DNA from: Nocardioides sp. | GTDB lineage: Bacteria > Actinomycetota > Actinomycetes > Propionibacteriales > Nocardioidaceae | Assembly: GCF_029937575.1 (NCBI RefSeq) | Contig: NZ_JAPYPS010000016.1 | Coordinates: forward strand, 3,706-67,705 | Direction of reading: 5' to 3' | Length of the DNA stretch: 64,000 nucleotides | Shown here: in pieces, positions 1 through 47,497 of the stretch | Layout of the letters: every line of letters starts with the position of its first letter | How positions within the stretch are numbered: position 1 is the stretch's first letter | The notes under the pieces: generated by a model | Seen by the model: the letters and a program-made list of their open reading frames with translations, nothing else | What the model was told of the DNA's origin: nothing | Databases searched by the model: none | Program-made: the position numbers and the translations under genes

Positions 1-3000
1 GAACGTGCCGGACTGGTGCCCGGACAGCACGAGCTTGACGTTGGGGTACGGATCGATCAGCTCGTTGATCATCGGGTTCGAGTACGGGTTGTTCGCGTCG
101 CGCGCCCACAGGTGGTGGTGGGTCGCCATGATGACGCTGTGCTCCGGGTGGGAGCCGATCACCGACTGGGCCCAGGCGACACCGGCGGCCGAGTTCTTGG
201 CCCCCGGCTCGACCGACCAGTGCCCCAGCTGGAGCCACAGGATCTTCGCACCGTTGATCTCACCGGTGTAGAAGAAGTTGTCGATGTCGTGGTTGCCTCC
301 CCACGTCCACGGCGATCCCTCGAGACCGTCCTGGAAGCGCTTCATCGGGAAGTACTTCTGCAGCATCTGCCGACCGTTGTACGACTCGTTGTAGTCGTGG
401 TTGCCCCAGGAGATCGCCAGCGGGATGTCCGCCTCCTCCAAGGCCAGAGCGGACGGCTCGGCGTTGCGCCACTGCCACTCGTCCTCGAACTCCTCCTTGT
501 TGACCCAGTCACCGGCCTGGACGACCATCGCGGTCTTGCGCTCCTCCGCCTTCTCCGCGATGTACTCGAACTGCTCGGTCATGGTCCACGGAGTCGCCTG
601 CGAGTAGAGCTGTGTGTCGCCGACGTGGTTGAAGGACCAGTCGTAGTCGTCGGCCGACGGCAGCACGTCATCGAAGTTCTCGCCCTCGGCCCACGGAAGA
701 GCCGTGAGTCCGCGCCAGACGAGCACGGTCAGCACCCGCTGCGCCGAGACCGGGTTGTCGGCCGCCGTGGTCCGTACGTCGAGGTTGACCGCGTCGCCGC
801 TCGGGCTGGCGTCGGCCTCCTTGAGCAGCCACTCCTGCGCAGCGGTGTCCCACACCCAGGCGGACACGGTCCGGGTGTCGGCCCTGCCTCGCCAGGAGAA
901 GTGCCACTCGCCCTCCGCGGCCTGCTCCTCGGTGAGGGCCAGACGGTAGATCTGGAAGGGGTTGGTGTCCTCGCCCACGCTCGACGGCGTCAGCTCGCTC
1001 GTCGCAGAGCCGCTCGACGGAGTCAGCGCGCTCGGCTCGCGCGCGGAGCTGACGCCCGTGCGGACCTGTACGTTGCTCGAGTCCAGCGCCACGGACTCGT
1101 TCGCGTAGTACTGGGCCGACACCCTCTCCGGCAGGTCGGACTGCGGGGTGACGTGCAGTCGGAGCGAGTCGTTGGCGGGGCGCTGCGCGTCGGTGAGCGG
1201 AGTCGCCGGGGCAGTCGTGTCGCTCACGTCGAGGACGAGCACCGACGGCTCGGAGACCAGGCTCGGGTCGGCGCTGGCCGCGGCGGAGAAGACGACCTCG
1301 ACGTCCGGTCCGGTGCTCAGCACGGGCACGTCCACCGTGAACACTCCTGCCTCCACCTGCTGCTCGAAGACCGTCGCCCCGTCGATGGCCGCACTCAGCA
1401 GCGAGCGCCTGGACACCGAACCGAACACCTCGACCGCACCTGCCTCGATCTCGGCCCCGTCACCGGGACGGCCCAGCGCGAGCACGAGCTCGTCGTCGGC
1501 CTTCGTCTCCCGGCCGCCGAACCGTACGGCGTCGCCGAAGTAGTTGTCGGCACGGAAGGCGTCCAGCTCCGGGATGAACTGCGTGCTGGCGATCCAGAGC
1601 TCGTCGACGACCCCGTGGAACGGCGCCAGCAACCGGTTCGGGTCGTCCGGGTCCACGCCCGCGTCGCCCACGGTCAGCGGTGCGTCGAAGAGGTTCGGGA
1701 ACCGCTTGCCCTCGGCCATCGCCGAGTGGACCTCGGCCCCGTCGACGAAGACCGCGTAGGTCATCTCGTCGAAGGTGACCGTGACCACGTGGGGCTCGGC
1801 GTCCTTGGCGAGCTGCGCCGTGGCGTCGTCGTACGGCGTCAGCGCCTGGAACAGGCCGTCCGCCTTGCGCATGCCGATCTCCATGCTCGGCTCGTCAGCC
1901 CCGGGCACACTGCGCGCGACGAGGGCGTTGCTGTCGCCGCCGATGGCGGCCATGTCCTCGGGGGTGAGGCTGAAGATGGCCGAGACGGTGAACTTCTTGG
2001 CGTTGGCGCCGATGTTGCCGCCGTACTGCAGGCGCGAGGAGACGAAGCGCGCCGATCCGCTCGCGGGCAGCGCGGAGGAGGAGTTGGTGTCCGATTCCAG
2101 CTCGGAGCCCACGAGGGTGCCGGCGACCTTGCCGGTCGCGTCGGTGCGAGCCTCGCCGACGGCGATGTCGGCGTTGAAGTGCTCGACGAGCTCGAACTCC
2201 TCGGCCCACACGTCGCGGGGGTCGTTGCCGGGCGACCCGAGGCCGCCGAAGTAGGCCCAGACCACCTGCGACTCCCGCTTCGACAGCGTGTCGAGGCGCA
2301 CCCAGACGACCGAGGTGCCACCGGGTTGCCAGGTCTCGACCTCGAAGGGCACCGGAACGCTGCGGTCGGTGAACACCGCGAACGCGTCCGCTGTGACGTC
2401 GGGGGTGTCCTCGACCTGCAGTCGCACGGGCACCTCGGTGAGGGTCCGACGCTGGTCGTTGGTCACGGTGATCGGCTCGCGCTGCGTGGCGCCGGGATCC
2501 GCCCAGGCGACCTCGCTGCCGTCCTCGGAGGCGACGCCGTGCAGCACCCGCAGTGCGGCCTCGGCGGCCTTGAGCCGGTCCAGGTGGTCGAGGGCCGTGC
2601 GTTGCGCCTTCGTCAGTCCCTTCACGGCGCTGCGTCCCGCAGCGACGGCGGGCTCGTCCTCCAGCGTCACGTCGGGTGCCGGCGGCAGCGCGGCGAGCTG
2701 GTCGTCGACCACAGACATCTCGCGGTCGACGCCGAAGCCCTCCGCGAAGTAGCTCACGCCGTTGCCGTTGACCTCGTGGCGGTTGATCGTCAGCCTGTCG
2801 TCGGTCACCTCGACCTCGAGGAACGACGGGTGGGAGTTGCTCGTGAAGCTGAGACCGCCACCGAGCCGCTCGAAGAGGCCCAGGTAGTCGTCCTCGCTGA
2901 TCTCCTCGGGGTGGCCGTCCTCGAGCTGGCTGTAGTGCTTGGCGCCCGCGGTGCCGGGGTTGACGAACAGCGTGCCCTCGGGGTCGACCTTGTACTCCAC

Positions 3001-6000
3001 CCGGACACCACCGATCACCTCCTCGATGACCTCGGCCTCGGGGTCGGCCGCACGGGCCTTCACCGGTGACGACGGATCCGAGAAGAGCTCCTTGGTGCGA
3101 CTCCAGTAGTGGTCGTGGCCCTGGAGCACGAGGTCGATGTCAAGCTCGTCGATCAGCGGCACGAGGCGCTCGCGCATCCCCATGATCTCCTCGTCGAACG
3201 GGTGCGCCCCCGCCGTGTAGGGACCCTTGTGGGTGGTCAGGATGATCCACTTCGCACCGTTGTCGCGCGCCGCACCGACGTCCTCGCGGATCCACTCGAA
3301 CTGCTCGTCGCTGATGATCTCGCAGCCCTCCGGGTTGCCGAAGCCGTGGAGCTGGCACCCGCCCCGACCCTCGTTGGTGTTCAGCATCACGAAGTGGGCG
3401 TCGTTGTAGTCGTAGGAGTAGTAGACGCCGGCAGAGGTGTTCTGATCCCCGGATGCCTGCAACGTGAAGTGCTGGGTGAACTCGTCCGGCGCGCTGTCAT
3501 GGTTGCCCGAGACGGGCGCCATGGTGCTCGCCAGCAGGCTCTCCTGCGCGGCGCCGAGCATGTCGCTCCAGTCCAGCTCGTCGTCGCTGACCTGCACCAC
3601 GTCGCCGGCGTGCACGATGAACTCCGACTCCGGCACCGTCCTGAGCGCCTGCGCGATCGTCTTGGCGGACACCACTGCATCGGCACCACCCCCGCGCGCC
3701 TGCGTGTCGGCGATGCCGATGAAGGAGAAGTCGTCATCACCGTCGGCCGTCTGGAACGACCCGTTCTCGCTCCACCTGCCGGTGAAGGTGTCACCTACCC
3801 GGTAGTAGTAGGTCATGCCCGGCGTCAGCCCGGTGGCGACCACGCGATAGATGGTCTCGCCCTCGTTGCTCTCCTCCGGCGAGGCGGCGAACGTCGCCGT
3901 CGCGTCGTCCGGGAAACGCGGGTCGGTGCTGACGATCGCGCCCGGCTCCACCGCATTGGTCAGCGCCTGGTACCAGGTGAAGGCCCGCTGGGTCCCGGGG
4001 TCGCCGTAGAAGGTGGAGGTGATCCGGTTCGGCATCTCCTCCGGGGCGACGTACTTGATCCTCGGCAGCAGCGTGTCGACATCCCACATCCACGCCTCGA
4101 CGAAGTCCCAGCCCAGGCCGCTGTACGTCGACTTGTTGTGCTCGTCGAGGCCATCGCCGTCGTCGCCCACGACGACGTTGCCGCTGACGGTCGTGGCGGG
4201 TCCGAGATCCGCCCCGACGACGCCGTCGGTCGCCTCGGCCGCCAGGGCGGTGCCCTCTCGGACGAGGTTGTTGCGCACGACAGCGTCGTCGGAGACCTCT
4301 GCAACCACCCCGGCGGCAATGCCCTGGACGGCGACCTCCGCCTCCGTGTCGACGTCGTGGACCGAGCTGTGCTCACGCGACTGCGCGACGACACCCGCGC
4401 CGAGCCCGGCCGCAGGCGCCGTCAGCTGCGCCTCGGTGACCTGGACCTGCGTCACCACGGCCGAGCGCGCCGGCGTCCCACCGAGCGTCACGGCCAGGCC
4501 GGCCACCTTCTCGGTGCCCGCGACGGGTGCGAGCCGCACGCCGGAGAGCGTGAGGCCGCGTACGGTGCCGTGCAGCTCGCGGAAGAGGGCGAGGTCCTCG
4601 GAGCCGGCGGTCGGTGCGTAGGTGACGTCCTCGATGGTGTGGCCGTTGCCGTCGAAGGTGCCGGAGAAACGGTCGAAGCCCCCGAACTCGGCGCCGTCGA
4701 AGTCGATGTCGGCACCGAGACGGAAGAAGTCGGACCCGTAGACGCCGTAGTCGGACTCGATGGCCGCCTGCATCGCCTCGAGGTCGGCGGGCGAGGTGAT
4801 CAGGTAGGGATCAGCAGCGGTCCCCCGTCCGTCGACACCGGCCTGCACGAACGGCGGGACCTGGGCCAGTCTCGGCACCGGGTGCCCCATCACCGGCTCC
4901 CAGCGCCAGGTGCCGGACGCGGAGAAGTCCCATCCGATGCCCTCGTAGGTGTCCTGAGCGGCCAGCTGCGCCGGCGTGGCCGGGGCACCGTCGTGGCCGA
5001 TGCTCCAGGTCGTCGCCAGCTCGCCGGGGACCGAGACCAGGTCGATGTCGCTGTCCCACGCGAGGTCGAAGGAGCCGGTGCCGGCGGTCTTGACGGCCTG
5101 CTCGACATGACCCTCGGCGTCGAAGGTGCGGTTGTTGTTGGAGTTGACGAGGTTCTGCGTGGCCGAGCCCAGCCTGCTGGCGGCGATCCACCCGGTGCCG
5201 AACGTGCGGTTGGCGTTGGTGTTGGCGTCCATGTAGATCCACCCGGACCTGACGACGTTCGCACGCATCGTGGTCGAGGCGCTCGGCACCAGGGTCACGA
5301 AGGCCGCCGATGCGCCGCTGCCCTGCGTGTCCTCGTTGAGTCGAGTGTCGACCACCAGGTTGCGCTCGATCGTGGGACTGCCGCCCGAGACCTGGTTGAG
5401 CACGGCGCTGGGGTACTTCTTGCCGATGACGTCCACGTTGTCGAGGTAGTTGTCGGCGATCACGCTGCTGCCGGAGATCCGGTTGACGAGCGCCGAGGCA
5501 CGCGAGTTGGTCGCGGTGATGGAGGCCTTGATCAGCTCGACCTTCGAGTCGATGACCGAGTTGCCACTGACCGTGACGTCGGTGCCGCTCTCCAGCAGGA
5601 CCGCTGCGAAGTGTCCGGCCGACGGCGGGTCACCTGCGACCGTGACGGTGGCTCCGACCAGGGTGAGGTCTCGGATCGTCGCGCCGGTGGCGCTGCGGAA
5701 GAAGGCGGTGCTCGTGCTCGTCGCGTAGCCACCGATGTTGCTGACGGCGTGGCCGTTGCCGTCGAAGGTCCCGGTGAACGTGTGGAACGTCGGGAACGTC
5801 GCCCCCTGGTAGTTGATGTCCGCCTCGACCCGGTAGGTCAACGGCGCATACGTCTCCGGGTCGGCGTTCACGGCCTCGGCGGCGGCCGTCAGGTCGTCAG
5901 CCGAGGCGATCAGCACGGGGTCAGCCTCGGTGCCCGACCCGCTGAGCTCGCCGACGGTGGCGGCGGCCGCCGGGCCGGCGATCACCAGCAAGGAGCCGGT

Positions 6001-6051
6001 GAGCGCCGCGGCCACGACGATCGACAGGCGGCGCGGGGAGAGCATCTTCAT
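1..6051 (-). CDS. Giant secreted multidomain surface protein, C-terminus beyond the window. Contains a signal peptide, two GLUG-type modules, a purple-acid-phosphatase-like N domain plus metallophosphoesterase, a LamG/DUF2341-like region and a second metallophosphoesterase
   Basis: The minus-strand frame phased to position 1 has no stop from ATG 6049-6051 to the window edge (2017 codons). It is absent from the ORF track only because its stop lies outside the window; + ORFs 16..3069 and 3109..6078 are its antisense shadow. The N-terminus MKMLSPRRLSIVVAAALTGSLLVIAGPAAAATV looks like a signal peptide. My translation shows two FDGNGH-type modules and MTYYYRVGD. It also shows two phosphoesterase motif sets: GIADTQ/HAGDVV/SGNHD/QGHDHY and GDTQLY/AGDWVN/WGNHDYN/ATHHHL/SGHQSG. 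Confidence 0.8.
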   Translation of the reverse strand, partial: MKMLSPRRLSIVVAAALTGSLLVIAGPAAAATVGELSGSGTEADPVLIASADDLTAAAEAVNADPETYAPLTYRVEADINYQGATFPTFHTFTGTFDGNGHAVSNIGGYATSTSTAFFRSATGATIRDLTLVGATVTVAGDPPSAGHFAAVLLESGTDVTVSGNSVIDSKVELIKASITATNSRASALVNRISGSSVIADNYLDNVDVIGKKYPSAVLNQVSGGSPTIERNLVVDTRLNEDTQGSGASAAFVTLVPSASTTMRANVVRSGWIYMDANTNANRTFGTGWIAASRLGSATQNLVNSNNNRTFDAEGHVEQAVKTAGTGSFDLAWDSDIDLVSVPGELATTWSIGHDGAPATPAQLAAQDTYEGIGWDFSASGTWRWEPVMGHPVPRLAQVPPFVQAGVDGRGTAADPYLITSPADLEAMQAAIESDYGVYGSDFFRLGADIDFDGAEFGGFDRFSGTFDGNGHTIEDVTYAPTAGSEDLALFRELHGTVRGLTLSGVRLAPVAGTEKVAGLAVTLGGTPARSAVVTQVQVTEAQLTAPAAGLGAGVVAQSREHSSVHDVDTEAEVAVQGIAAGVVAEVSDDAVVRNNLVREGTALAAEATDGVVGADLGPATTVSGNVVVGDDGDGLDEHNKSTYSGLGWDFVEAWMWDVDTLLPRIKYVAPEEMPNRITSTFYGDPGTQRAFTWYQALTNAVEPGAIVSTDPRFPDDATATFAASPEESNEGETIYRVVATGLTPGMTYYYRVGDTFTGRWSENGSFQTADGDDDFSFIGIADTQARGGGADAVVSAKTIAQALRTVPESEFIVHAGDVVQVSDDELDWSDMLGAAQESLLASTMAPVSGNHDSAPDEFTQHFTLQASGDQNTSAGVYYSYDYNDAHFVMLNTNEGRGGCQLHGFGNPEGCEIISDEQFEWIREDVGAARDNGAKWIILTTHKGPYTAGAHPFDEEIMGMRERLVPLIDELDIDLVLQGHDHYWSRTKELFSDPSSPVKARAADPEAEVIEEVIGGVRVEYKVDPEGTLFVNPGTAGAKHYSQLEDGHPEEISEDDYLGLFERLGGGLSFTSNSHPSFLEVEVTDDRLTINRHEVNGNGVSYFAEGFGVDREMSVVDDQLAALPPAPDVTLEDEPAVAAGRSAVKGLTKAQRTALDHLDRLKAAEAALRVLHGVASEDGSEVAWADPGATQREPITVTNDQRRTLTEVPVRLQVEDTPDVTADAFAVFTDRSVPVPFEVETWQPGGTSVVWVRLDTLSKRESQVVWAYFGGLGSPGNDPRDVWAEEFELVEHFNADIAVGEARTDATGKVAGTLVGSELESDTNSSSALPASGSARFVSSRLQYGGNIGANAKKFTVSAIFSLTPEDMAAIGGDSNALVARSVPGADEPSMEIGMRKADGLFQALTPYDDATAQLAKDAEPHVVTVTFDEMTYAVFVDGAEVHSAMAEGKRFPNLFDAPLTVGDAGVDPDDPNRLLAPFHGVVDELWIASTQFIPELDAFRADNYFGDAVRFGGRETKADDELVLALGRPGDGAEIEAGAVEVFGSVSRRSLLSAAIDGATVFEQQVEAGVFTVDVPVLSTGPDVEVVFSAAASADPSLVSEPSVLVLDVSDTTAPATPLTDAQRPANDSLRLHVTPQSDLPERVSAQYYANESVALDSSNVQVRTGVSSAREPSALTPSSGSATSELTPSSVGEDTNPFQIYRLALTEEQAAEGEWHFSWRGRADTRTVSAWVWDTAAQEWLLKEADASPSGDAVNLDVRTTAADNPVSAQRVLTVLVWRGLTALPWAEGENFDDVLPSADDYDWSFNHVGDTQLYSQATPWTMTEQFEYIAEKAEERKTAMVVQAGDWVNKEEFEDEWQWRNAEPSALALEEADIPLAISWGNHDYNESYNGRQMLQKYFPMKRFQDGLEGSPWTWGGNHDIDNFFYTGEINGAKILWLQLGHWSVEPGAKNSAAGVAWAQSVIGSHPEHSVIMATHHHLWARDANNPYSNPMINELIDPYPNVKLVLSGHQSGTF

Positions 6052-6059
6052 GGCGGCCT

Positions 6060-9000
6060 TCACTTCTTGTGGGTGTAGGAGAGGGCCTTCGAGGTGGCCT
6101 TGGCGTAGAACTGGTCGCCCCGGTACCTCGCGGTGACCTTGTACGTGCCACGGGGGAGCGACTTCGGGAGCTTCGCGGTCGACGTGCCGGCCTCGAGGGT
6201 CGTCGTGACCTTCTTGGTGACGCGCACCTTCCGCTTCTTGCCGCCCGCCCCCTTGGTGACCTTGCCGGTCACCTTGACGAATATGCGGCCGGACGGAGCG
6301 TCGAGACCGGCGGCCTGAGGCACCAGGGCCTTCACCTGGGTCGGGCGCTTCTTGCCCTTGGTCTTCTTGACGTAGGACAGCGACACGCGTGAGGCGACCT
6401 TGGCCTGCTTCTTCCAGGTCGCGGTGAGCACGAGGTCGCCCGCCGTGCCCGTGGGGATGACCAGGGCCGTGCTCGTCTCACCGAGGCCCGCCCAGCCCGC
6501 GAAGTCGTACCCCGTGCGGGTCGGGTTGAGGATCGTGAGCGGAGCCGACGTCACCGTGTAGGAGGTCGGGTTGCCCTCAGGGGCAGTGCCGCCGGCCAGG
6601 TCGTAGCTGATCGAGTGCACCTGGTGCCAGGTGGGCGCATAGCTGCGCAGACCCGTCGAGCCGCTGGGGATCGTCACGACGAGCGTCGGCCCGGCCAGGT
6701 CGGTCCCGGTCCAGCCGGCGAACTCGTAGCCGGCGCGAACCGGGGTGGGCAAGGTGATCTCGTCCGACTCGATCGTGTAGGTGCCCGGGGCCGGGCCGTC
6801 GAATCCCTCGTCGTCGGCGAGCTCGTAGATGATCGTGTGGACGACGGGCGTCCAGGTCGCGGTGTAGGAGCGTGCCTCCGAGGAGCCCGCGGCGACGACC
6901 ACCGTCGTGACCGCACCATTGAGGTCCGTGCCGGTCCAGCCGGCGAAGGCGTAGCCGGCGCGGGTGGGGTTGACCAGGCTGAACTCCTCGCTCTCGACGT
7001 TGTACGACGTGGGGTTGATCCCGCCCGCCGTACCGCCGGCGAGGTCGTAGCTGATCGCGTAGCCGATCGGCGTCCAGGTGGCCGTGTAGCTCCGGGTCCC
7101 GGTGGAGCCGGAGGCGACCGCGACGTCAGCGCTCGTGCCGTCGATGTCGGTGCCGGTCCAGCCCGCGAACGTGTAGCCGGCACGGGTCGGGTTCACCAGC
7201 GTGAACTGGTCGCTCTCGATCGTGTAGGACATCGGGTTGCCCTCGACCGAGCCGCCCGCGAGGTCGTAGCTGACCGCGTAGGACACGGGGGTCCAGGTGG
7301 CGGTGAACCGCAACGCCGTCGTCGGGTAGCGCGGCAGCGTCACGGCGAGCGCGGACCCGTCGACGCTCGGACCGCTCCACCCGGCGAACGTGTAGCCGAC
7401 CCGGGTCGGGTTGACCAGCGTCGTGTCGGTGGCGTAGCCGTGGGTGGCGGGGTTGGCCCCGTCGTCGGTCCCGCCGGCGAGGTCGAGGTCGAGGTCGACG
7501 CTCGGCATGCTCACCCCACGGGGAAGCGGGTGCTCGCGCTCCTCGTCCCAGCGCCAGGCACCGACCTCGGAGGAGAAGTCCCAGCCGAGCGCCTCGTACG
7601 TCGCCTGGTCGGCCAGCTCCTCGCGCGAGGTGTAGGTGCCGAGGTCACCGAGGGTCCAGGCGCCGACGGTGTCGAGCGTCGTCGAGCCGGACCAGAACAC
7701 GTCGTACGGATTCGGGGTGGGTGCGTCGGTGTGCCCGACAGGCGCCTGGGCGTCGATGTTGTTGTTGGCGTTCACCAGGTTGCCGGTGCTCTCGCACCCG
7801 GAGGCCGCGGTGCGGATCCACCCGTAGTTGGCGGGCGAGCTCTGCCGGATCGCGCCCGAGAGGACGACGTTGCCGGTGAGGGTTCCCGAGCACGAGCTGT
7901 GTCCGTTGAGGAAGGCCGCACCCGCTCCGGAGCTGCCGTTCTGCGTGATCGACGTGTCGAGGACGAGGGTCTGCGAGACCGCCGCGTCGCCGTTGGCCCA
8001 GCCGATCGCCCCACCGACACGCTTGTCGCCGTTGATGGTGACCCCGGCGAGCAGGTTGCCCACAAGGGTGTTTCCGCCGCCGACCGCCTTGCCGGCGAGG
8101 CCACCGACGCCCGAGGAGTTGTCGGTGTTGTCCGGGGACCTCACGGTCGAGCCGATCAGGGCAGAGCCGGTGATCGTGGCCCCGTCGATGCGGGCTGCGA
8201 AGCCGGCCTGCTGGACCCGGTCGGAGGAGCCGCCGGTGGTCAGCGAGGTCAGCTCGCGCAGCGTCAGGTCCCGGATCGTGCCCTCGAGGTGACGGATGAA
8301 GCCGGTCTGGGTCGAGCCGGCGTCACCGGCGTCGGCGACCGCACCAGGCTCCAGCGTCAGGTCGCTGATCGTGTGGCCGTTGCCGTCGAGCGTGCCGGAG
8401 AAGCGGTCGAAGGTCGCGAACGTCCCGCCGTCGTAGTCGATGTCCCCGGAGAGCTCGAACCACGCAGCGCCAGCGCCGCTCTGCTCCGTGTCGGCGTTGA
8501 CCATCGACGCGGCGGCGTCGAGGTCCGCGGCCGACCCCACGACGTACGGCGACCCCTCGGTGCCCTCGCCGGCGAGCTCGCTCACCACGATCGTGACCGG
8601 GCTGGGCACCGCGATGTCGTCGCCGTCGGCCGCGGTGACGGTGGCGGGGTAGCTCCCCGGGACGGTGAAGTCGACGTCGCTCACGTCGACGTCGAGCGTG
8701 CCGCGGTCGACGGTCGCGCCGAAGCGGGCGAGCAGCTCGGCGACCGTCGGGCTGCTGCCCACCTGGTAGGACGTCGTGCTGGTGACGACCGCGATGACCG
8801 GCAGCTCCACGACCGGCTCGGCCGCCGCGCGCAGCACCGGGTGCTCGGCCTCGGCATCCCATGCCCACACGGTCTCGAAGTCCCAGCCCAGGTCCTCGTA
8901 GGGGGCCGGGGTCCGCAGCTCCTCGGACGGCGTCGACGTGCCGTCGTTGCCGAGGACCCACTTGTTGGGAGCGTCGTGCGCGTAGCCACCGCCGGAGCGC

Positions 9001-11822
9001 CGGGTCCACCGCAGCGCGTGGTCGGCCGGGTCGGTCTCGGCCACGGCGGGGAAGCCCACTCGGTTGTGGTCGGAGGTGACCAGGTTGAGGCCGTAGCTGT
9101 CGATCTGCTCGTGGTTGGCTCCCGCGATCCAGCTCACCGTGTTGCCGTTGGTGCCGGTCGCGTGCGAGTACACCGAGCCCGAGTAGACGACGTTGCCGGA
9201 GATGTCCTGCCCGTCGGCTCCGGCGCCGCCGTAGTTCACCAGCACGCCGGCGTTCATGTTGGCGCCCCCCGCCCCGTTCTCGGACATGTGGCTGCTGGAC
9301 GGGTCGGCGGCGACGAGGTTGTTGGTGACCGTCGAGAAGGCCCCGTGGTAGCCGACGAAGGCGCTGACGTACTTGCCCGCGCTGTACACCGTGGTGGCGC
9401 CGCCGATCATGCTGTTGGACACGGTCGTCGGCTGGTCCGTCGTCCCGTCGATCCTCGAGACGAACCCGGCGTCGAAGGAATTCTCTCCCTCCGAGCTCTC
9501 GTTTCGCACCGTCGCGTCGCGCACGGCGACACGGTCGATCGTCGAGCTCGTCGCCTGGGTCGACAGGCCCGCGGTGACCGCCGAGGTGGCGTCCGGCGCC
9601 AGCGTCGTGCCCGACTTCAGTGCCGTGGCCTGGTCCAGCGTGAGGCCGACGACCGTGGCGCCGTCGAGCACCGCGAAGAAGGCAACGCGCTCGGTGCTGC
9701 CGTCGACCCACGGCGTGTAGACGAGGTTGCTGATCGTGTGGCCGCCACCGTCGAAGACGCCCGAGAAGCGGTGGAAGCCGGCGAACTCGGCGCCGGCGTA
9801 GCTCAGGTGCTCGGTGAGCTCCACGTGACGCGGGCCGAACGTCTCGTAGTCGCTGTTGACGGCGGCTGCCACGGCGTCGAGCGCGGCGACGTCGCCGACC
9901 AGGTAGGGGCTGGCCTCGGTGCCCTCGCCGACGACGCCGGCGATCTCCACCGGCTCGAGGATCCAGGTGGCGGTGTAGGAGCGCGCCCCCGACGAGCCGG
10001 ACGGGATCGTGACGGTCGTCGTGGGCCCGTCCAGGCCGGTCCCGGTCCAGCCGCCGAAGGTGTAGCCGGCTCGGGTCGGGTTGGCGAGCACGATGTCGTC
10101 GTCGCTCTCGATGTACGTCTCCGGGTTGTCTTCGGTGGCCACGCCGCCGGCGAGGTCGTAGGTGATCGCGTGGCCCGAGATCCACGTGGCGGTGTAGCTG
10201 CGGTCGCCGGTGGAGCCGGACTCGATGGTCACCGTCTCGGCGGGCTCGCCGAGGTCGGTGCCGGTCCAGCCGCCGAACGAGTGGCCGGGGCGAGTCGGCG
10301 TCTCGAGGGTGAGGTCATCGCTCTCGATGGTGTAGGTCGCCGGCGCCGGGTTCTCCACGGAGCCGCCGGCGAGGTCGACGTCGAGCACGTAGTCGGTCAG
10401 GGCCCAGCTCGCGACGTACTCACGGTCGCCGGTCGACCCGGACGCCACGGTGACCTCGAGCGTCGCCTCGGCGAGACCGGTCCCGGTCCACCCGGTGAAG
10501 GTGTGGCCGGGGCGGGTCGGCGGAAGGATCGTGAGGTCGGCGTCCTCGGAGGTGTACGCCGTCGGGTTGGCGCCGTTCGCACCGCCGTCGAGGACGTAGG
10601 AGATCTCGTCGAAGCCGTCGAGGTCGGCGCGCGCGGGGACCGGGTGATCCAGCTCCGCCGCCCAGCGCCAGCCGCCGGTGCCGGCGGCGAAGTCCCAGCC
10701 GAGGTCCTCGTAGGTCGCCTGCTCGGCGAGCTGCTCGGGGCTGGTGTAGGTGCCCAGGTCGCCCACGGTCCAGCTGCCCGTCTCCGAGAGCGGGGTCGAG
10801 CCCAGCCAGAGCAGGTCGTAGGGGTTCGGCTCGGGCGCGACGGTGTCCCCGACCGGGTCGGCCGGGTCGATGTTGTTGTCGGAGCTGACCAGGTTGTCCG
10901 AGGAGGTGCACCCGTTGGCAGAGCGGACCCAGCCGTAGCCGGCCGAGGCCACCTGCTCGACGAGCCCGGACACCACCACGTTGCCGGTGATGTCACCCAG
11001 GCATGCGGTGTGGCCGGTGATCATCGCGGCGCCGGCGCCGGCGTTGCCGTGGTGAGCGACGGAGGCGTCGACGACGAGGTTGTCCGAGACCGTGGCCGCA
11101 CTGTTCTGCCAGCCGACCACCCCGCCGACGCGCTTGTCCCCCGACACGGTCGTGCCCGAGAGCAGGTTGCCGCTGATCGTGGTCGAGGCCCCACCGAGGC
11201 TCTTGCCGACCAGGCCACCGACGGCCGAGGAGTTGTCGGTGTTGTCCGGTGAGCTCACCACCGAGTCGACCAACGACGATCCCGTCACCGTGCCACCGGC
11301 GCTGCGGGCGGCGAACCCACCCACCTGGACGCGGGTGCTCGAGCCACCCACCGCCGCCGCGGTCGCCCGCTTCAACGTCAGGTCCTCGATGACGCCGCCC
11401 GACAGCACCTGCACGAAACCGGTCTGAGTGGCGTTGGCGTCTGCGGAGTCGGTGGTCGTGCCCGGTCGCATCGTCACGTCGCTGATCTCGTGGGCGTTGC
11501 CGTCGAAGACCCCGGAGAACTCCCGGAACGTCTCGAACGTGCCACCGGCGTAGTCGATGTCGGCCCCCAGGCGATAGCTGAGCGATCCGTACGTCGAGGT
11601 GTCTCCGTTGACGTTGGCAGCTGCCGCGTCGAGGTCCGCAGCCGACCGGATCACGATCGGATCGGCCGTCGTGCCCGAGCCCGTCAAGCCGTCGATGACG
11701 GCTGCCACGGCCGGGGCGGGGGCAACGACGGCCAGGCCACCGCTGCCGACCGCGAGACCGAGGACTGCGACGCCGAGGCGTGCGAGGAAACGGGGGGCCC
11801 GTCCGGGCTCCGGGTGTGACAT
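6060..11822 (-). CDS. Giant secreted surface protein with three GLUG-type modules, 3+5 Listeria-Bacteroides (Flg_new-type) repeats, an Ig-like segment and a Lys-rich Ig-like C-terminus
   Basis: The ORF track gives 6060..11891. I prefer ATG 11822 (MSHPEPGRAPRFLARLGVAVLGLAV, signal-peptide-like). Motifs include FSGVFDGNAH / FSGVFDGGGH / FSGTLDGNGH module starts, GGLVGK / GGLAGK turns, and the repeated NPTR(A/V)GY(T/A)F(A/G)GW(T/S)G. It lies 8 bp upstream of the next gene. Confidence 0.85.
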   Translation of the reverse strand: MSHPEPGRAPRFLARLGVAVLGLAVGSGGLAVVAPAPAVAAVIDGLTGSGTTADPIVIRSAADLDAAAANVNGDTSTYGSLSYRLGADIDYAGGTFETFREFSGVFDGNAHEISDVTMRPGTTTDSADANATQTGFVQVLSGGVIEDLTLKRATAAAVGGSSTRVQVGGFAARSAGGTVTGSSLVDSVVSSPDNTDNSSAVGGLVGKSLGGASTTISGNLLSGTTVSGDKRVGGVVGWQNSAATVSDNLVVDASVAHHGNAGAGAAMITGHTACLGDITGNVVVSGLVEQVASAGYGWVRSANGCTSSDNLVSSDNNIDPADPVGDTVAPEPNPYDLLWLGSTPLSETGSWTVGDLGTYTSPEQLAEQATYEDLGWDFAAGTGGWRWAAELDHPVPARADLDGFDEISYVLDGGANGANPTAYTSEDADLTILPPTRPGHTFTGWTGTGLAEATLEVTVASGSTGDREYVASWALTDYVLDVDLAGGSVENPAPATYTIESDDLTLETPTRPGHSFGGWTGTDLGEPAETVTIESGSTGDRSYTATWISGHAITYDLAGGVATEDNPETYIESDDDIVLANPTRAGYTFGGWTGTGLDGPTTTVTIPSGSSGARSYTATWILEPVEIAGVVGEGTEASPYLVGDVAALDAVAAAVNSDYETFGPRHVELTEHLSYAGAEFAGFHRFSGVFDGGGHTISNLVYTPWVDGSTERVAFFAVLDGATVVGLTLDQATALKSGTTLAPDATSAVTAGLSTQATSSTIDRVAVRDATVRNESSEGENSFDAGFVSRIDGTTDQPTTVSNSMIGGATTVYSAGKYVSAFVGYHGAFSTVTNNLVAADPSSSHMSENGAGGANMNAGVLVNYGGAGADGQDISGNVVYSGSVYSHATGTNGNTVSWIAGANHEQIDSYGLNLVTSDHNRVGFPAVAETDPADHALRWTRRSGGGYAHDAPNKWVLGNDGTSTPSEELRTPAPYEDLGWDFETVWAWDAEAEHPVLRAAAEPVVELPVIAVVTSTTSYQVGSSPTVAELLARFGATVDRGTLDVDVSDVDFTVPGSYPATVTAADGDDIAVPSPVTIVVSELAGEGTEGSPYVVGSAADLDAAASMVNADTEQSGAGAAWFELSGDIDYDGGTFATFDRFSGTLDGNGHTISDLTLEPGAVADAGDAGSTQTGFIRHLEGTIRDLTLRELTSLTTGGSSDRVQQAGFAARIDGATITGSALIGSTVRSPDNTDNSSGVGGLAGKAVGGGNTLVGNLLAGVTINGDKRVGGAIGWANGDAAVSQTLVLDTSITQNGSSGAGAAFLNGHSSCSGTLTGNVVLSGAIRQSSPANYGWIRTAASGCESTGNLVNANNNIDAQAPVGHTDAPTPNPYDVFWSGSTTLDTVGAWTLGDLGTYTSREELADQATYEALGWDFSSEVGAWRWDEEREHPLPRGVSMPSVDLDLDLAGGTDDGANPATHGYATDTTLVNPTRVGYTFAGWSGPSVDGSALAVTLPRYPTTALRFTATWTPVSYAVSYDLAGGSVEGNPMSYTIESDQFTLVNPTRAGYTFAGWTGTDIDGTSADVAVASGSTGTRSYTATWTPIGYAISYDLAGGTAGGINPTSYNVESEEFSLVNPTRAGYAFAGWTGTDLNGAVTTVVVAAGSSEARSYTATWTPVVHTIIYELADDEGFDGPAPGTYTIESDEITLPTPVRAGYEFAGWTGTDLAGPTLVVTIPSGSTGLRSYAPTWHQVHSISYDLAGGTAPEGNPTSYTVTSAPLTILNPTRTGYDFAGWAGLGETSTALVIPTGTAGDLVLTATWKKQAKVASRVSLSYVKKTKGKKRPTQVKALVPQAAGLDAPSGRIFVKVTGKVTKGAGGKKRKVRVTKKVTTTLEAGTSTAKLPKSLPRGTYKVTARYRGDQFYAKATSKALSYTHKK

Positions 11823-12058
11823 GGGGGCTCTCTCCACTGGATGTCGCGCACGACCGAGTCCCGACGGGGCTGCCGGGCAGGAGGAACTCAACTGACTCCG
11901 GGTAACCGTCGGCGAGGTGCTCGCGACCGGATTGCGAGGACCAGATGAACAAGCGTCTTAGCGCTGCGGGAGGCCTCTGCCCAGAACGCCCGTCGGATCA
12001 CTCGCCGTTCACGGGGTGTCCACCGCGGCGTCGGCCGGCTGTGGTGTCGTCCGCTGCG

Positions 12059-42566: not shown

Positions 42567-42755
42567 GGGCGCGCGCAAGGTCTCGCGTCGGGAGAGCCCG
42601 CTGAGTCACCGCCGAGCCCGTAGCGCGAGCACCCGCGCCAGGAATCGCGTGACCGGCAGCTCTCGCACCTGGCTCACGGACGCCTCACAGGAAGGGGACA
42701 TCCCCGAGGCCCACAGTCGGGGCACCGACGTACCCGACCTGACCAGGAGCCACCG

Positions 42756-44000
42756 ATGTCGACATCCAGCATCCCGACCCCTACCGCCGGACCGTCGCGC
42801 CCGCCGCGACGCCGTCACCTCCGCCGCGTGGCTGCTGCCGTCGGCGCAGCAGCGCTGACCGCGCCGTTCGTGCTCGGTGTCGGCGCGCTCGGGGCGTCCG
42901 CGGTCGGCCCCGCGTCCGCCGGCGCGTCGCTGACGGCCACCCCCGGCATCGTGCAGGCCGCCGACCGGGGCGGCTACGGACCCTTCGGCGGCTACGCGTA
43001 CGGCGGGGCCTCCGGCTACGCGTACGGGTACGGCGGCGGACAGGGCGACTCAGGCCTCTCCGGCCTGCCCGGAGGGACCACCAGCACCTCCCTGGACACC
43101 AGCGACGCGACGGAGGAGCAGTCGGTCGGCCTCGCCCTGATCACCAGCACGCTCGACTACGGGGCAGGCGAGGCAGCCGGCACCGGCATGGTGATCGACG
43201 CCGACGGTCTCGTGGTCACCAACCACCACGTCGTCGCGGACGCGACCTCGCTCGAGGTCACCATCGCCGAGACCGGCGAGACCTTCGAGGCGACGTACGT
43301 CGGCGGAGACGCCACCCGCGACGTGGCGGTCCTCCGACTGACCGGCGCCACCGAGCTCACCCCGGTGGACCTCGACCCGACCGGCGTCGCAGAGGGTGAC
43401 GTCGTCACCTCGATCGGGGATGCCGGCGGCGACGGCGGTTCGCTGACCGCGGCCAGCGGCACCGTGACCGACGCCCGGACCGGGATCGAGGTGAGCAACG
43501 ACGACGGGTCGACGTCGCGGTTGCGCGCGTTGATCGAGGTCGATGCCGACATCGTCCCCGGCGACTCCGGCGGCGCTCTGCTCGACGCGGATGGTGAGGT
43601 CGCCGGGATGAATGTCGCGGCGTCGGGCGGCGGCACCGACATCACGGGCTACGCCATCCCGATCACCCGGGTCCTGAGGATCACCGAGGCGATCATCGAC
43701 GGGGACACCAGCAACGGAGTCGTCCTCGGCTACGAGGCGTTCCTCGGCGTAGAGCTGTCCGGAGCTGGCACGTCACCCGTGCTGGCCGGGGTGCTCGACG
43801 GCACCGCCGCGGCCACGGCAGGACTCGCTGCCGGCGACACGGTCACCGCCGTGGGCGACATCACCGTGACCACCGCCGACGAGCTCTCGTCCGCGATCGC
43901 CACGCACGCGGCCGGCGAGACGGTCAGCATCGCCTGGACCGACTCCGACGGCGCCGACCACGAGGCCGAAGCGACCCTCGGGGCCGCCCCCATCGCCTGA
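42756..44000 (+). CDS. Secreted trypsin-like (S1C/HtrA-like) serine protease with a C-terminal PDZ domain
   Basis: VVTNHHV (His), RDVAVLRL (Asp) and GDSGGAL (Ser). PDZ-like region GVLDGTAAATAGLAAGDTVTAVGD. The N-terminal linker is Gly/Tyr-rich. Confidence 0.88.
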   Translation: MSTSSIPTPTAGPSRPPRRRHLRRVAAAVGAAALTAPFVLGVGALGASAVGPASAGASLTATPGIVQAADRGGYGPFGGYAYGGASGYAYGYGGGQGDSGLSGLPGGTTSTSLDTSDATEEQSVGLALITSTLDYGAGEAAGTGMVIDADGLVVTNHHVVADATSLEVTIAETGETFEATYVGGDATRDVAVLRLTGATELTPVDLDPTGVAEGDVVTSIGDAGGDGGSLTAASGTVTDARTGIEVSNDDGSTSRLRALIEVDADIVPGDSGGALLDADGEVAGMNVAASGGGTDITGYAIPITRVLRITEAIIDGDTSNGVVLGYEAFLGVELSGAGTSPVLAGVLDGTAAATAGLAAGDTVTAVGDITVTTADELSSAIATHAAGETVSIAWTDSDGADHEAEATLGAAPIA

Positions 44001-44002
44001 CG

Positions 44003-44030
44003 GGGGACAGGCCGGACCCCCGGTCTCCCC
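44003..44030 (+). terminator. Possible tail-less intrinsic terminator after the protease gene
   Basis: A GC-rich stem of about 11 bp with a 2-nt bulge, starting 3 nt after the stop. There is no U-tract. Confidence 0.3.
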
Positions 44031-44106
44031 TGACACCGCCCCGGCGCACAGGCACCCCACAGATCCGCCACACGGCCCGGCCAGTCGGGTCGGGCTGACT
44101 AGGGCG

Positions 44107-44150
44107 TGTCACCCCACGTTCACCCCGCGTCCGTCCCCACGTCACCGGCC
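44107..44150 (+). promoter_or_regulatory. PHO-box-like array: four 11-nt direct repeat units (TGTCACCCCAC GTTCACCCCGC GTCCGTCCCCA CGTCACCGGCC)
   Basis: The TCACC cores at 44109, 44120 and 44142 are spaced by 11 and 22 nt. The array lies 41-84 nt upstream of ATG 44191. Confidence 0.45.
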
Positions 44151-44190
44151 GCACCGGCCGGGCGGACGCATCAGACCAAGGAGCATGTTC

Positions 44191-44793
44191 ATGCAGCAGT
44201 ACTGGATGCTCGGCGCCGACCTCGTCGCGATCGCCGTGCTCGTCGGAGCCCTCTTCCTGCCCCGGCACGATCGTCGCGAGCTCGTCGTCGCCTACCTGGG
44301 CGTCAACATCGGCGTGCTGGCCGTGACCGCGACGCTGGCGACCAGCACCGTCGGCGCGGGCCTCGGCCTCGGCCTGTTCGGCGTCCTGTCGATCATCCGG
44401 CTTCGCTCCCAGGAGCTCGAGCACCACGAGATCGCCTACTACTTCGCCGCCCTGGCGATCGGCCTGCTCTGCGGTCTGGCCACCACCCCGACGTGGCTGC
44501 ACGGCGTGCTGCTGGTCGGCGTCCTGGCCGCGATCTGGGTCGGGGACCACCCGCGGATCGCCGAGACCGCGCAGCGCCAGGAGCTGGTGCTCGACCGCGC
44601 CTTCACCTGCGGGCCGGCCCTGACCGCCCACCTCGAGCACACGCTGGACGCCCACGTGCTCTCGGCCACCGTGCGTCGGACCGACCTGGTCAACGACACC
44701 ACCCTCGTCCAGGTGCGCTACCGAGCGACCACCGCCCCGCCTGCCGCCGACCCCACCCAGCCGGCCGTGCTGCGCACGAGTGGTGTGGCATGA
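44191..44793 (+). CDS. DUF4956-type integral membrane protein
   Basis: ORF 44185..44793. AAGGAG at 44178-44183 favours ATG 44191. It has several TM segments, then a soluble tail. Confidence 0.75.
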   Translation: MQQYWMLGADLVAIAVLVGALFLPRHDRRELVVAYLGVNIGVLAVTATLATSTVGAGLGLGLFGVLSIIRLRSQELEHHEIAYYFAALAIGLLCGLATTPTWLHGVLLVGVLAAIWVGDHPRIAETAQRQELVLDRAFTCGPALTAHLEHTLDAHVLSATVRRTDLVNDTTLVQVRYRATTAPPAADPTQPAVLRTSGVA

Positions 44794-45671
44794 GCGTGGC
44801 CACCCTCGACCCCGAGCCCGCCCACGCGGTCGCCGAGACGCTGCGCCGACTCACTCCCGTCGGACTGGACGAGCTGGTCGACCGCGCAGCCCTTCTCACC
44901 CGCGTCGACCGCAAGTACGTCGTGGCGGTGCAGGACCTGCCCGCCCTGCTCGAGTACCTCCCGGACGACACCCACGTGCTCGAGATCGGCGATGCCCGCG
45001 CCTTCGGCTACCGCTCGACCTACCTCGACACCCCGGACCGGGCCAGCTACCTGCTCGCCGGTCGGCGCCACCGCCGCCGCTTCAAGGTGCGCACCCGCGC
45101 CTATCTCGACACCGACACCTGTTGGTTGGAGGTCAAGACGCGGTCGGCACGCGATGCCACCGTGAAGCAGCGGATCACCCACCACGACGCCGGTGACGGA
45201 CCGCTCACCACCGAGGGTCTCGCGTTCGTCGACGCGTGCCTCGAGGAGGCCCGGGTGGAGGCCGCCTGCGCCGCTGATCTCGCACCGGTCCTCGTGACGG
45301 CCTACCGTCGCGCCACCCTGCTCCTGCCGAGCTCCGGCAGCCGCGTCACCATCGACACCGATCTCGGCTGGACCTCGCTCACCTCCACGCCACGCGACCT
45401 CGATCGACCCGCACTGGCGATCGTCGAGACCAAGACCGGCTCGACACCCTCTGCGGTCGACCGGCTGCTGTGGTCGCGCGGGCACCGGCCCGTCCAGGTC
45501 TCCAAGTACGGCGTGGGCATGGCCGCTCTCGATCCCGTCCTCCCGCGCCTGAAGTGGCACCGGGTCCTCGACCGCCGGCTGCACGTGCCCCGCCGGCACG
45601 CATCCCACCCACACGCACCCGCATCCGCATCCGCCAGCTCACCGACGCCTCCGAGAAGGAGCCCACGATGA
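44790..45671 (+). CDS. VTC-domain (polyphosphate-polymerase-domain) protein
   Basis: ATG 44790 overlaps the upstream stop (ATGA). RVDRKYVV, STYLDTPD, RRRFKVRTRAY, WLEVKTR and IVETKTGS are the basic tunnel-type beta-strand signatures I associate with VTC/CYTH-like domains. Confidence 0.7.
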   Translation: MSVATLDPEPAHAVAETLRRLTPVGLDELVDRAALLTRVDRKYVVAVQDLPALLEYLPDDTHVLEIGDARAFGYRSTYLDTPDRASYLLAGRRHRRRFKVRTRAYLDTDTCWLEVKTRSARDATVKQRITHHDAGDGPLTTEGLAFVDACLEEARVEAACAADLAPVLVTAYRRATLLLPSSGSRVTIDTDLGWTSLTSTPRDLDRPALAIVETKTGSTPSAVDRLLWSRGHRPVQVSKYGVGMAALDPVLPRLKWHRVLDRRLHVPRRHASHPHAPASASASSPTPPRRSPR

Positions 45672-47497
45672 ATCTCCGCCACACCCTCCGCACGAGCCTC
45701 GCCGCAGGTGCCGCGGTCGCCCTCCTGGTCGGCTGCGGCAGCACTGCCCCGGCCGGCACCTCCGCGGCCTCCACCGGCACCTCCGGCAGCACCACGTCGC
45801 TGGTCGCGGGCACCGCCGGCATCACCGCCACCGAGGCCCTGGCTGCCAACGAGGAGGCGCACACCGCAGACGACCCCGGCGCATACGGCGATGGCGACAC
45901 CGACACCGGCACGGGGACGACCATCACGCTGGACGACGCGGAGTCGGCCGTCGACGGTGACGGCGCCTCGGTCGAGGGGGACGTCGTGACCATCTCGACG
46001 GCGGGCACCTACGTCATCTCCGGCACCCTGACCGACGGCCAGCTGGTCGTCGACAGCACCGACGACGGCACGGTCGAGCTCGTGCTCGACGGCGTCGACA
46101 TCACCTCGACTGACGACTCGCCGCTGCTCGTCACCGAGGCCGACGAGGCCGTGGTGGTGCTCGCCGACGGCTCGGTCAACCGCCTGGCCGACGGCGCGGC
46201 CTCCACCGCCGACGACGACGAGGAGGACGCCGCGAACGCCACCCTCTTCTCCACCGCCGATCTGACCATCGCCGGCACCGGCGCGCTGGAGGTCGAGGGC
46301 AACGCCGACGGGATCACCAGCAAGGACGGCCTCGTCGTGCTCGGGGGCGAGATCACCATCAGCGCCGCCGACGATGGTCTCCGCGGCAAGGACTACCTGG
46401 TGGTCGAAGGGGGCACCCTCACCGTCGAGGCCGGAGGCGACGGGCTGAAGTCGGACAACGACAGCGACGAGGCCGACGGCTTCGTGGCCGTCACCGGAGG
46501 CTCGGTCACGGTCGAGGCCGCCGACGACGGGCTCGCCGCCACCACGGACGCCATCGTGGGGGGCGGCAGCCTGTCCATCACCGCCGGGGACGGCTCCGCC
46601 TCCGGCACCTCCTCTGCCACCACGGACGACACGACCAGCAAGGGCATCCAGGCCGGGGCCAGCATCGTCGTCTCCGGGGGCGAGGTCACCGTGGATGCCT
46701 CCGACGACGCGATCAACTCCGACAGCGTGGTCTCGGTCGACGGCGGCACCCTCGTCCTCGCCTCCGGTGACGACGCCATGCACGCGGACGGCGACCTGAC
46801 CGTGGCCGGTGGCAGCATCACGGTCACGACCTCCTACGAGGCTCTCGAGGCGGGCACCATGACCATCTCCGACGGCATCCTCGACGTGACCTCGAGCGAT
46901 GACGGCATCAACGTGGTCAACGACGCCGGCGACGCCTCGCTCCTCATCGAGGGAGGCAGTGTGCTCGTGCACGCCGGCGGCGACGGGATCGACGTGGGGG
47001 GAGACGGCAGCATCACCGGCGGCGACGTCGTCGTCGAGGGCCCCACCCAGCCGGGCAACGGCGCGCTCGACCTCGACGGCGCCCTGCTGACCGAGGGCGG
47101 CACCCTCGTGGCTGTCGGCACGTCCGGCATGGCGTCGGCCCCGTCGACGGAGTCGTCACAGGCCTGGGTGTCGGCCACGCTCACCAGCACCGTCCCGACC
47201 GGGTCGGTCATCACCGTCACCGACAGCGACGGCACCCTGGTGACCGAGTACGAGGTGGGCGAGGAGATCTCGTCGTTCGTCTACTCGGGCCCGGAGATCG
47301 AGGACGGCGACTCGTACTACCTCCTGGTCGATGGCGTCGAGACGGCCACCGTCACCGCCGGCGAGGGCCCCACGGGCGGCATGGGGGGCATGGGCGGGGG
47401 CCCCGGTGGCGGGGGCCCCGGTGGCGGGGGCCCCGGTGGCGGGGGCCCCGGTGGCGGGGGCACCCCTCCCGACGGGTTCCCGGACGTCGCGTCCTGA
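45668..47497 (+). CDS. Acidic secreted lipoprotein, DUF4353/carbohydrate-binding-domain-type beta-helix-like repeats with a Gly-rich tail
   Basis: ATG 45668 overlaps the VTC stop (ATGA), with GAGAAGGAG upstream. Lipobox LLVGCGS. Repeated DDG(L/I) motifs at about 20-30-aa intervals, and a C-terminal (GGPGG)x4 tract. Confidence 0.75.
   Translation: MNLRHTLRTSLAAGAAVALLVGCGSTAPAGTSAASTGTSGSTTSLVAGTAGITATEALAANEEAHTADDPGAYGDGDTDTGTGTTITLDDAESAVDGDGASVEGDVVTISTAGTYVISGTLTDGQLVVDSTDDGTVELVLDGVDITSTDDSPLLVTEADEAVVVLADGSVNRLADGAASTADDDEEDAANATLFSTADLTIAGTGALEVEGNADGITSKDGLVVLGGEITISAADDGLRGKDYLVVEGGTLTVEAGGDGLKSDNDSDEADGFVAVTGGSVTVEAADDGLAATTDAIVGGGSLSITAGDGSASGTSSATTDDTTSKGIQAGASIVVSGGEVTVDASDDAINSDSVVSVDGGTLVLASGDDAMHADGDLTVAGGSITVTTSYEALEAGTMTISDGILDVTSSDDGINVVNDAGDASLLIEGGSVLVHAGGDGIDVGGDGSITGGDVVVEGPTQPGNGALDLDGALLTEGGTLVAVGTSGMASAPSTESSQAWVSATLTSTVPTGSVITVTDSDGTLVTEYEVGEEISSFVYSGPEIEDGDSYYLLVDGVETATVTAGEGPTGGMGGMGGGPGGGGPGGGGPGGGGPGGGGTPPDGFPDVAS
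47399..47458. repeat. In-frame 15-bp tandem repeat (GGCCCCGGTGGCGGG x4) at the 3' end of the lipoprotein gene
   Basis: Encodes (GPGGG)x4. Confidence 0.85.

Follow-up and report, generated by a model that had tools for sequence, protein, structure and literature searches.

Described PHO-type and PhoP-type operators

Among the operators of Streptomyces coelicolor PhoP are some that are built from two or three core units together with weak "extension" and "support" units, as in the CCEUES arrangement at phoU/phoRP (PMC2275107). The promoter described here, which lies in a 64-kb stretch of DNA that was analysed as a whole (the window), carries an array, called array B below, that resembles the class III members of this set (phoU/phoRP and pitH2) in having four 11-nt direct repeats with a GTTCACC core. 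Its strong-strong-weak-strong layout recalls CCEUES, and in both cases the downstream gene is tied to phosphate or polyphosphate. The two differ in that the S. coelicolor boxes lie over the -35, whereas array B lies after a conserved promoter-like block; in addition, the 3′ halves of the array B units fit the consensus poorly, and array B is a predicted operator. The phoU-phoRP intergenic regions of Streptomyces (L075 at 3486–3760, L076, and L077) have GTTCACC and ATTCACT or ATTCATT 22 nt apart on the phoU-ward strand with a weak unit between them, and this strong-weak-strong spacing is the spacing of array B units 2–4.

Within the order Propionibacteriales, Microlunatus phosphovorus has the sequence GTTCACnnnnnGTTCaC (GTTCAC-N5-GTTCAC) on its pstS, ppk, pit, and ppgk promoters (PMC6754071). 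These sites have the bacterial order, the core, the spacing, and the polyphosphate/phosphate context in common with array B and are the nearest stand-in for PHO boxes on pst/pho genes of the window's own genome, but they have been assigned to PolR, a DevR-like regulator, and not to PhoP, and their target genes differ from the VTC operon (PMC6754071). In Actinosynnema pretiosum (Pseudonocardiales), GTTCA-type sites 11 nt apart precede pstS, and the PhoP of that organism binds such motifs (PMC9019756); the part of the supplementary list of predicted PhoP targets that we covered contains no VTC or DUF4956 gene, and pstS and phoU carry GTTCA-type sites (PMC9019756).

A second array in the same promoter, array A, is best matched by the Mycobacterium tuberculosis PhoP box TCACAGC-N4-TCACAGC and the Corynebacterium glutamicum PhoR box CCTGTGAAaatCCTGTGAA. 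Mycobacterium tuberculosis PhoP also binds three or four tandem units of its motif, and does so cooperatively (PMC4832192), and C. glutamicum PhoR binds the TCACAGC motif in its opposite-strand form, CCTGTGAA (PMC3353115). Array A has in common with these boxes a motif of 7 nt that is repeated in three units with an 11-nt period and, in relatives, arrays that face a regulator gene; the M. tuberculosis box begins with T, whereas the array A units begin with C or G. Of the systems of this PhoP/PhoR type, that of Corynebacterium senses phosphate and that of M. tuberculosis senses pH. The sites of MtrA (GtnAcC-n5-GTnAcn in Streptomyces, GTCACAgcg in mycobacteria) are also direct repeats with an 11-nt period, and their GTCACC and GTCACA-like half-sites resemble both arrays, but the letters that the relatives conserve fit GTTCAYY (array B) and TCACAG beside a PhoP-type gene (array A) better.

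The DUF4956-VTC operon

The first gene of the operon (44191–44793, plus strand) encodes a DUF4956 membrane protein (PF16316, 190 bits) whose closest named relatives are those of Nocardioides dongkuii and N. deserti (75% identity). The protein is encoded on a 330-kb contig of JGI metagenome 3300045738, and the host is accordingly an uncultured member of the Nocardioidaceae (Propionibacteriales). A Shine-Dalgarno sequence, AAGGAG, lies at 44178–44183 on the same strand, 7 nt before the ATG at 44191, and GGAG stands at an equal distance from the start in relatives as well; a second in-frame ATG is present at 44185, from which the gene was called in the source metagenome. The start of the second gene (44790–45671, plus strand) overlaps the DUF4956 stop. 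Its product has a VTC domain (PF09359, 94.5 bits), a polyphosphate-polymerase-type tunnel domain, just as the earlier note on this DNA had said of the genes behind the array. A search of PDB sequences with the VTC protein returned no match to a relative of solved structure. The third gene (45668–47497, plus strand) encodes a secreted or lipoprotein-like product of the Cthe_2159 family (PF14262, 294 bits), whose C-terminal end (window 47400–47497) is a glycine/proline repeat, GGMGGMGGGPGGGGPGGGGPGGGG...

Upstream of the operon lies a gene for an HtrA/PepD-like protease (42756–44000). No pst/pho gene and no OmpR-family regulator gene was found within the 64-kb window. On its minus strand, 1–11957 is occupied by two very long open reading frames (about 2159 and about 1966 codons, GC3 > 0.9), one of which ends in a metallophosphoesterase-like stretch.

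A phased array of GTTCACC-type units

Array B occupies 44107–44150 on the plus strand and consists of four 11-nt units of the GTTCACC type: two core units, TGTCACCCCAC (unit 1, 44107–44117) and GTTCACCCCGC (unit 2, 44118–44128), a weak unit, GTCCGTCCCCA (unit 3, 44129–44139), and one of intermediate strength, CGTCACCGGCC (unit 4, 44140–44150). The earlier note had described exactly these units, and our reading of the sequence agrees with it on the (G/T)TCACC cores of units 1, 2, and 4, which start at 44108, 44119, and 44141 with spacings of 11 and 22 nt, and on the 40 nt that separate the end of the array at 44150 from the ATG at 44191. The consensus that it gave, G(G/T)TCAYYYR(G/C)G in 11-nt units, is the published one (PMC2275107).

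Array B thus has the at least two consecutive direct 11-nt units by which a PHO box is recognized, and its units follow the unit consensus with its GTTCACC core over positions 1–8, where units 1 to 4 agree at 7, 8, 6, and 6 of the 8 positions, respectively. Over all 11 positions the agreement, scored by eye, is 7, 9, 7, and 8; the fit is poor at positions 9–11, the 3′ halves of the units agree badly with the YRSG part of the consensus, and none of the four units matches GKTCAYYYRSG in full. That full consensus has five matches in the window against 3.5 expected. Single units therefore occur at chance level, and there is information only in the phased arrangement. The pair KTCACC-N5-KTCACC is found once on both strands of the 64 kb, with 0.11 matches expected and at least one match in 11 of 100 shuffled sequences, and the three-core pattern with up to one mismatch is found once in the window, whereas 100 shuffled sequences did not yield it. 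Array B is a real, non-random feature, and we predict with considerable confidence that it is a true protein-binding element.

A second array and a rigid promoter-like block

Array A, which the earlier note did not report, lies 33 nt upstream of array B at 44046–44074 on the plus strand. It consists of three 7-nt units of the TCACAGC type, 11 nt apart, which are direct repeats with a strict 4-nt spacer (GCACAGG-N4-CCACAGA-N4-CCACACG); the first base of the units in the window is C or G and not the T of TCACAGC. The pattern is present with 0 mismatches and is unique in the window. Its CACA cores are present in 12 Nocardioidaceae loci and invariant in all nine of those that were aligned.

Array A is followed by a spacer of exactly 21 nt (44074–44094, plus strand), a length found in 12 of 12 loci although the spacer sequence is conserved only in part (pairwise identity 0.48–0.58), and then by a 12-nt box, CTGACTAGGGCG (44095–44106, plus strand; pattern CTnACTgGGnnn), that is a candidate -10 of an array-A-dependent promoter. 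Array B begins directly after this box (44106 to 44107). Array A, the 21 nt, and the 12-nt box form one rigid layout in the 12 Nocardioidaceae loci. Within the clade these parts and, after them, array B follow one another in a fixed order, and the pairwise identities are 0.77 for array A, 0.58 for the spacer, and 0.57 for the box. The box is not a canonical TANNNT, and a scan of 43900–44300 for sigma-70 promoters and terminators found nothing, at the box or elsewhere, so the start site and the placing of array B downstream of a promoter can be read only from the spacing and from the short leaders of the relatives.

TCACAG-type matches number 29 upstream of DUF4956 genes and 11 elsewhere when related genomes are counted as independent. 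Pairs of such motifs precede DUF4956 in 22 loci, among them loci of Phycicoccus, Nostocoides, Cellulomonas, and Propionibacteriaceae, and TCACAG-type repeats that lack the rest of the block occur in Micrococcales and Propionibacteriaceae too. Array A is the operon's more widely conserved predicted control element. A weaker array-A-like triplet, CACGG-N6-CACAG-N6-GACA (42675–42700, plus strand; two mismatches, 0.49 matches expected), lies upstream of the protease gene. It is conserved in one metagenome contig of the clade (L064, about 325–370), and N. deserti has a similar array (L066, 1592–1620) ahead of its protease gene; the HtrA/PepD-like protease may be in one regulon with the VTC operon.

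Conservation of array B

The comparison covered 62 orthologous genome loci, from a collection that lacks the window's species, together with 11 close relatives taken from assemblies. Units 1 and 2 are kept in place and in phase in five Nocardioidaceae metagenome contigs, L064 (tGTCACCcaccGTTCACCttccGTGCACAcccgGTTCAGC), L067 (GTCACCcgccGTTCACCtcgcgtgagcgcaggGTTCACC), L068 (GTTCATCcctcGTTCACC), L069 (GTTCACCtctcGTTCATC), and L071 (GTTCACCgcacGTCCACC), and at least two units are present in six loci of the clade, the window included. Two of the five contigs also keep the phase of unit 4, L064 with GTTCAGC and L067 with GTTCACC. A single unit is found in L070 and a degenerate array in L072, and GTCACCcgccGTTCACC is also among the array B sequences of relatives. 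The fit to GTTCAYYY is better in the relatives than in the window and is perfect in L067, L068, and L069. Pairwise identity within the clade is 0.66 over the first 22 nt of array B and 0.40 in the leader after it, so this is a phylogenetic footprint, one that is restricted to a single clade. The Nocardioides species proper (L065, L066, and L034) and L073 have no array B, and thus it is not essential to the control of the operon.

Across the whole set, adjacent GTTCACC-type pairs numbered 16 in the 13.7 kb just ahead of DUF4956 genes and seven in the other 1.05 Mb, a count that takes related genomes as independent. The same strict scan for two adjacent units missed the PHO boxes of the Streptomyces phoU/phoRP intergenic regions, in which the strong units are 22 nt apart, so real sites are under-counted. 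GTTCACC-type arrays are also found ahead of the orthologous operons of Pseudonocardiales, Streptosporangiales, and one Plantactinospora. Those of Saccharothrix, Actinosynnema, and Sphaerimonospora have three or four units (e.g., GTACACCggcaGTTCATTgacgcGACACC) and lie just upstream of a -10-like hexamer, TATCGT, where an activating box would sit. PHO-type repeats are thus widely linked to the DUF4956-VTC operon, which supports the idea, put forward in the earlier note on functional grounds, that the operon is under phosphate control. Conservation upstream of orthologous operons, which that note had named as a check, holds in the five related contigs and in other orders but fails in the Nocardioides species proper and L073.

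Two paralogous regulator families

Nocardioides deserti (L066) and N. caldifontis (L034) have a response-regulator gene beside the operon, and two MAG loci (L048 and L060) encode homologs of this regulator close to theirs. The regulator of L066 and L034 scores 286 bits against M. tuberculosis PhoP, compared with 174 bits against RegX3 and 168 bits against MtrA, and it keeps five of the six base-contacting residues, N212, V213, E215, Y217, and Y220, with S216 replaced by L (residues from PMC4832192). TCACAG-type arrays face the regulator gene in both species (CTCACAGcaggcgCACAGG in L066, three in-phase units in L034); an autoregulatory box of the M. tuberculosis PhoP type was seen in these relatives only.

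The Streptomyces PhoP sequence used as a query is 98% identical to a Streptomyces protein whose gene sits in a phoU / phoR-phoP / carD-ispD-ispF-cysS locus. This protein scores 358 bits against RegX3 and 166 bits against M. tuberculosis PhoP. Our search of the literature yielded no usable RegX3 DNA motif and no usable statement on PhoP/RegX3 orthology, and the orthology was settled by sequence and gene neighborhood. Because Streptomyces PhoP is RegX3-like, the GTTCACC motif goes with the RegX3-type branch and TCACAG with the branch of M. tuberculosis PhoP and C. glutamicum PhoR. The two motif types thus appear to belong to two paralogous regulators, and the window would have one array of each. 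Mycobacterium tuberculosis PhoP has been assembled in vitro, for cryo-EM, on scaffolds cited from S. coelicolor pstS/phoU work (PMC11825685), so some cross-recognition is possible and the motif types are perhaps not cleanly separated. On balance, a regulator of the RegX3/Streptomyces PhoP type is somewhat favored as the ligand of array B.

A possible two-input promoter

In L068, L069, and L070, array B ends 23–27 nt before the ATG, and GGAG lies between them at a normal Shine-Dalgarno distance, which leaves no room for a promoter downstream of the array; no -10-like hexamer was found after array B in the window. The units of an activating PHO box overlap the -35 of the promoter that they regulate, and those of array B do not. 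The position of array B after the promoter-like block, with no -10 following it, argues against activation but not against binding. The earlier note had taken the array to overlap the core promoter as an activating box, and this is probably wrong, since array B follows the promoter-like block. Its more general view, that this is the architecture of an actinomycete PhoP site, is supported by the sequence, the 11-nt layout, the conservation, and the context, but not by the position expected of an activating box or by the 3′ halves of the units. Array B is probably a PHO-type operator at the transcription start or in the leader, and it is more likely to modulate or repress the operon than to switch it on.

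The observed sequences, their phasing and conservation, the fixed architecture, and the family of the neighboring regulator can be accommodated in the following account, in which array A is an activator site and array B a PHO-type operator that damps the operon, and to which, as a whole, we give a probability of about 50%. Array A would replace the -35 as the activator site of a PhoPR system of the M. tuberculosis PhoP / C. glutamicum PhoR type, and the 12-nt box would be the -10 region, as the fixed distances suggest. Array B would then cover about +1 to +45, that is, the transcription start and the early leader. Core units 1 and 2 would nucleate binding, and cooperative extension over weak unit 3 would reach unit 4, on the pattern of the class III operators of Streptomyces. 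The protein bound there would most likely be the genome's Streptomyces PhoP/RegX3-type regulator, responding to phosphate limitation, and on array B it would hinder RNA polymerase, so that phosphate status damps or gates the operon. The promoter would be a two-input gate, turned on by the M. tuberculosis-type PhoPR and damped by the RegX3/Streptomyces PhoP type. Damping when phosphate is scarce would make sense for a polyphosphate-polymerase-type enzyme, and PhoP is documented as a repressor at some S. coelicolor operators (PMC2275107). The sign of regulation is the more tentative part of this account, and net repression through array B, taken by itself, is somewhat less likely than not.

Alternative readings of array B

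The alternative that survives best, though we consider it improbable, is that array B consists of lower-affinity variant sites (TCACC in place of TCACAG) for the same M. tuberculosis PhoP-type regulator that would bind array A, so that feedback repression or fine-tuning would set in when the phosphorylated regulator is abundant and no phosphate-specific regulator would be involved. Arrays A and B do have TCAC and the 11-nt period in common, their distance is fixed in the clade, and M. tuberculosis PhoP both binds cooperatively as trimers or tetramers (PMC4832192) and has been assembled in vitro on S. coelicolor promoters of the GTTCACC type (PMC11825685). Array B is, however, shifted by 8 nt from the register of array A (T position at 44046/57/68 versus 44109/20/42), and the B units of relatives drift to a perfect GTTCAYYY and not to TCACAG. 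Moreover, M. tuberculosis PhoP needs the AG of TCACAGC according to consensus work cited with PMC4832192, and the recognition helices differ between the two regulator families.

We regard as still less probable the reading of the earlier note, in which array B is a classical activating PHO box over the -35 of a second, phosphate-starvation promoter. The arrays that adjoin TATCGT in Pseudonocardiales and Streptosporangiales have just such a position, and in the window 40 nt are left between array B and the ATG, but no -10-like hexamer is found in this interval. In L067–L070, the 23–27 nt before the ATG include the GGAG, and such a promoter would have to produce leaderless transcripts and use the GGAG as its -10.

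To the possibility that another OmpR-family regulator (MtrA, with GTnACC-n5-GTnACn, GlnR, or one like AfsQ1), or several in competition, uses array B as its operator we attach an equally low weight. The GTCACC of units 1 and 4 agrees with GtnAcC, the half-site of Streptomyces MtrA, GTnAC-type repeats overlap with the motifs published for MtrA and GlnR, and cross-binding among PhoP, GlnR, and MtrA is documented in Streptomyces. What the relatives conserve, however, is GTTCA(C/T)C, the PHO core, and not GTnAC, and phosphate control is indicated both by the polyphosphate-type content of the operon and by the PHO-type arrays of the orthologous loci.

The reading in which array B binds no protein, its conservation being due to a leader-RNA element or to a C-rich compositional bias, is very improbable, for although the array lies in a probable 5′ leader and an inverted repeat, GCGTCCG (44127–44133) / CGGACGC (44162–44168), spans units 3–4, the leader folds no better than shuffled sequences (z = -1.0), the hairpin over units 3–4 is not conserved in L064 or L067, and the conserved feature is an 11-nt-phased direct repeat of the DNA type and not base pairing. 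That inverted repeat (44127–44168) encloses CCGGCCGcacCGGCCGG and is specific to the window; a search of Rfam with the window locus and three relatives gave nothing but a spurious miRNA match, and an RNA-level role of the array B leader is unlikely. An ECF-type promoter (a CCAAC element with CGTT/CGTC at the start of array B) was also considered and dropped, since the spacings do not fit.

The operon as a predicted phosphate-regulated target

Array B is best described as a site of known type at a newly predicted target, and it would add no new kind of regulatory element. Bacterial operons with VTC-domain and DUF4956 genes have been without a described function or regulation, and in the literature that we searched VTC and DUF4956 are not mentioned together. 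If both arrays work as proposed, the Pho and PhoPR regulons of many actinobacteria would be predicted to include this operon, also in genera that accumulate polyphosphate (e.g., Phycicoccus and Nostocoides), and this would point to a second, non-Ppk route to polyphosphate under phosphate control. A promoter in which predicted sites of the RegX3/Streptomyces PhoP type and of the M. tuberculosis PhoP type stand side by side would also be a compact natural comparison of the two.

A broader generalization is speculative, and we think it rather unlikely to hold in full: phosphate-related two-component systems would act directly on the DUF4956-VTC(-Cthe_2159) operon, as a conserved target, throughout the Actinobacteria, and one Nocardioidaceae clade would integrate two paralogous OmpR-family regulators in a hard-wired two-input gate on a VTC-type polymerase, with a PhoP (M. 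tuberculosis) / PhoR (C. glutamicum)-type activator on three TCACAG units at the -35 and a regulator of the Streptomyces PhoP/RegX3 type on a four-unit PHO operator at +1.

Other features of the upstream regions

The leaders of the Pseudonocardiales loci (L004–L008, L011, L012, L014, L016, L022, L023, L027, and L049, at about 3870–3990) contain further motifs downstream of the PHO-like array and TATCGT. The motif CGAAAGTTT(CG) is present twice, once as a near-perfect palindrome, CGAAAGTTTCG, and before the Shine-Dalgarno sequence there is a highly conserved hairpin, CCCCGCCAAGAAGCGGGCGGTGCCC, that has no Rfam match. In the Plantactinospora/Micromonosporaceae loci (L009, L010, L013, L015, L017, L018, L020, L021, and L031, also at about 3870–3990) there is an upstream pair, CTGTTACaagCTGTTAG, with an 11-nt period, which resembles CTGTGA, the reverse complement of the TCACAG motif, and a GTTTACCcaccGGCCACC pair right before the Shine-Dalgarno sequence gives a two-array layout there too.

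In L070 a gene for a PLD-domain protein (268–1800, minus strand) is divergent from the VTC operon and has the intergenic region in common with it. The divergent upstream genes of L068 (1–822, minus strand) and L071 (3–203, minus strand) have no Pfam domain on record, and their start regions resemble that of the L070 gene. [quoted passage not shown]
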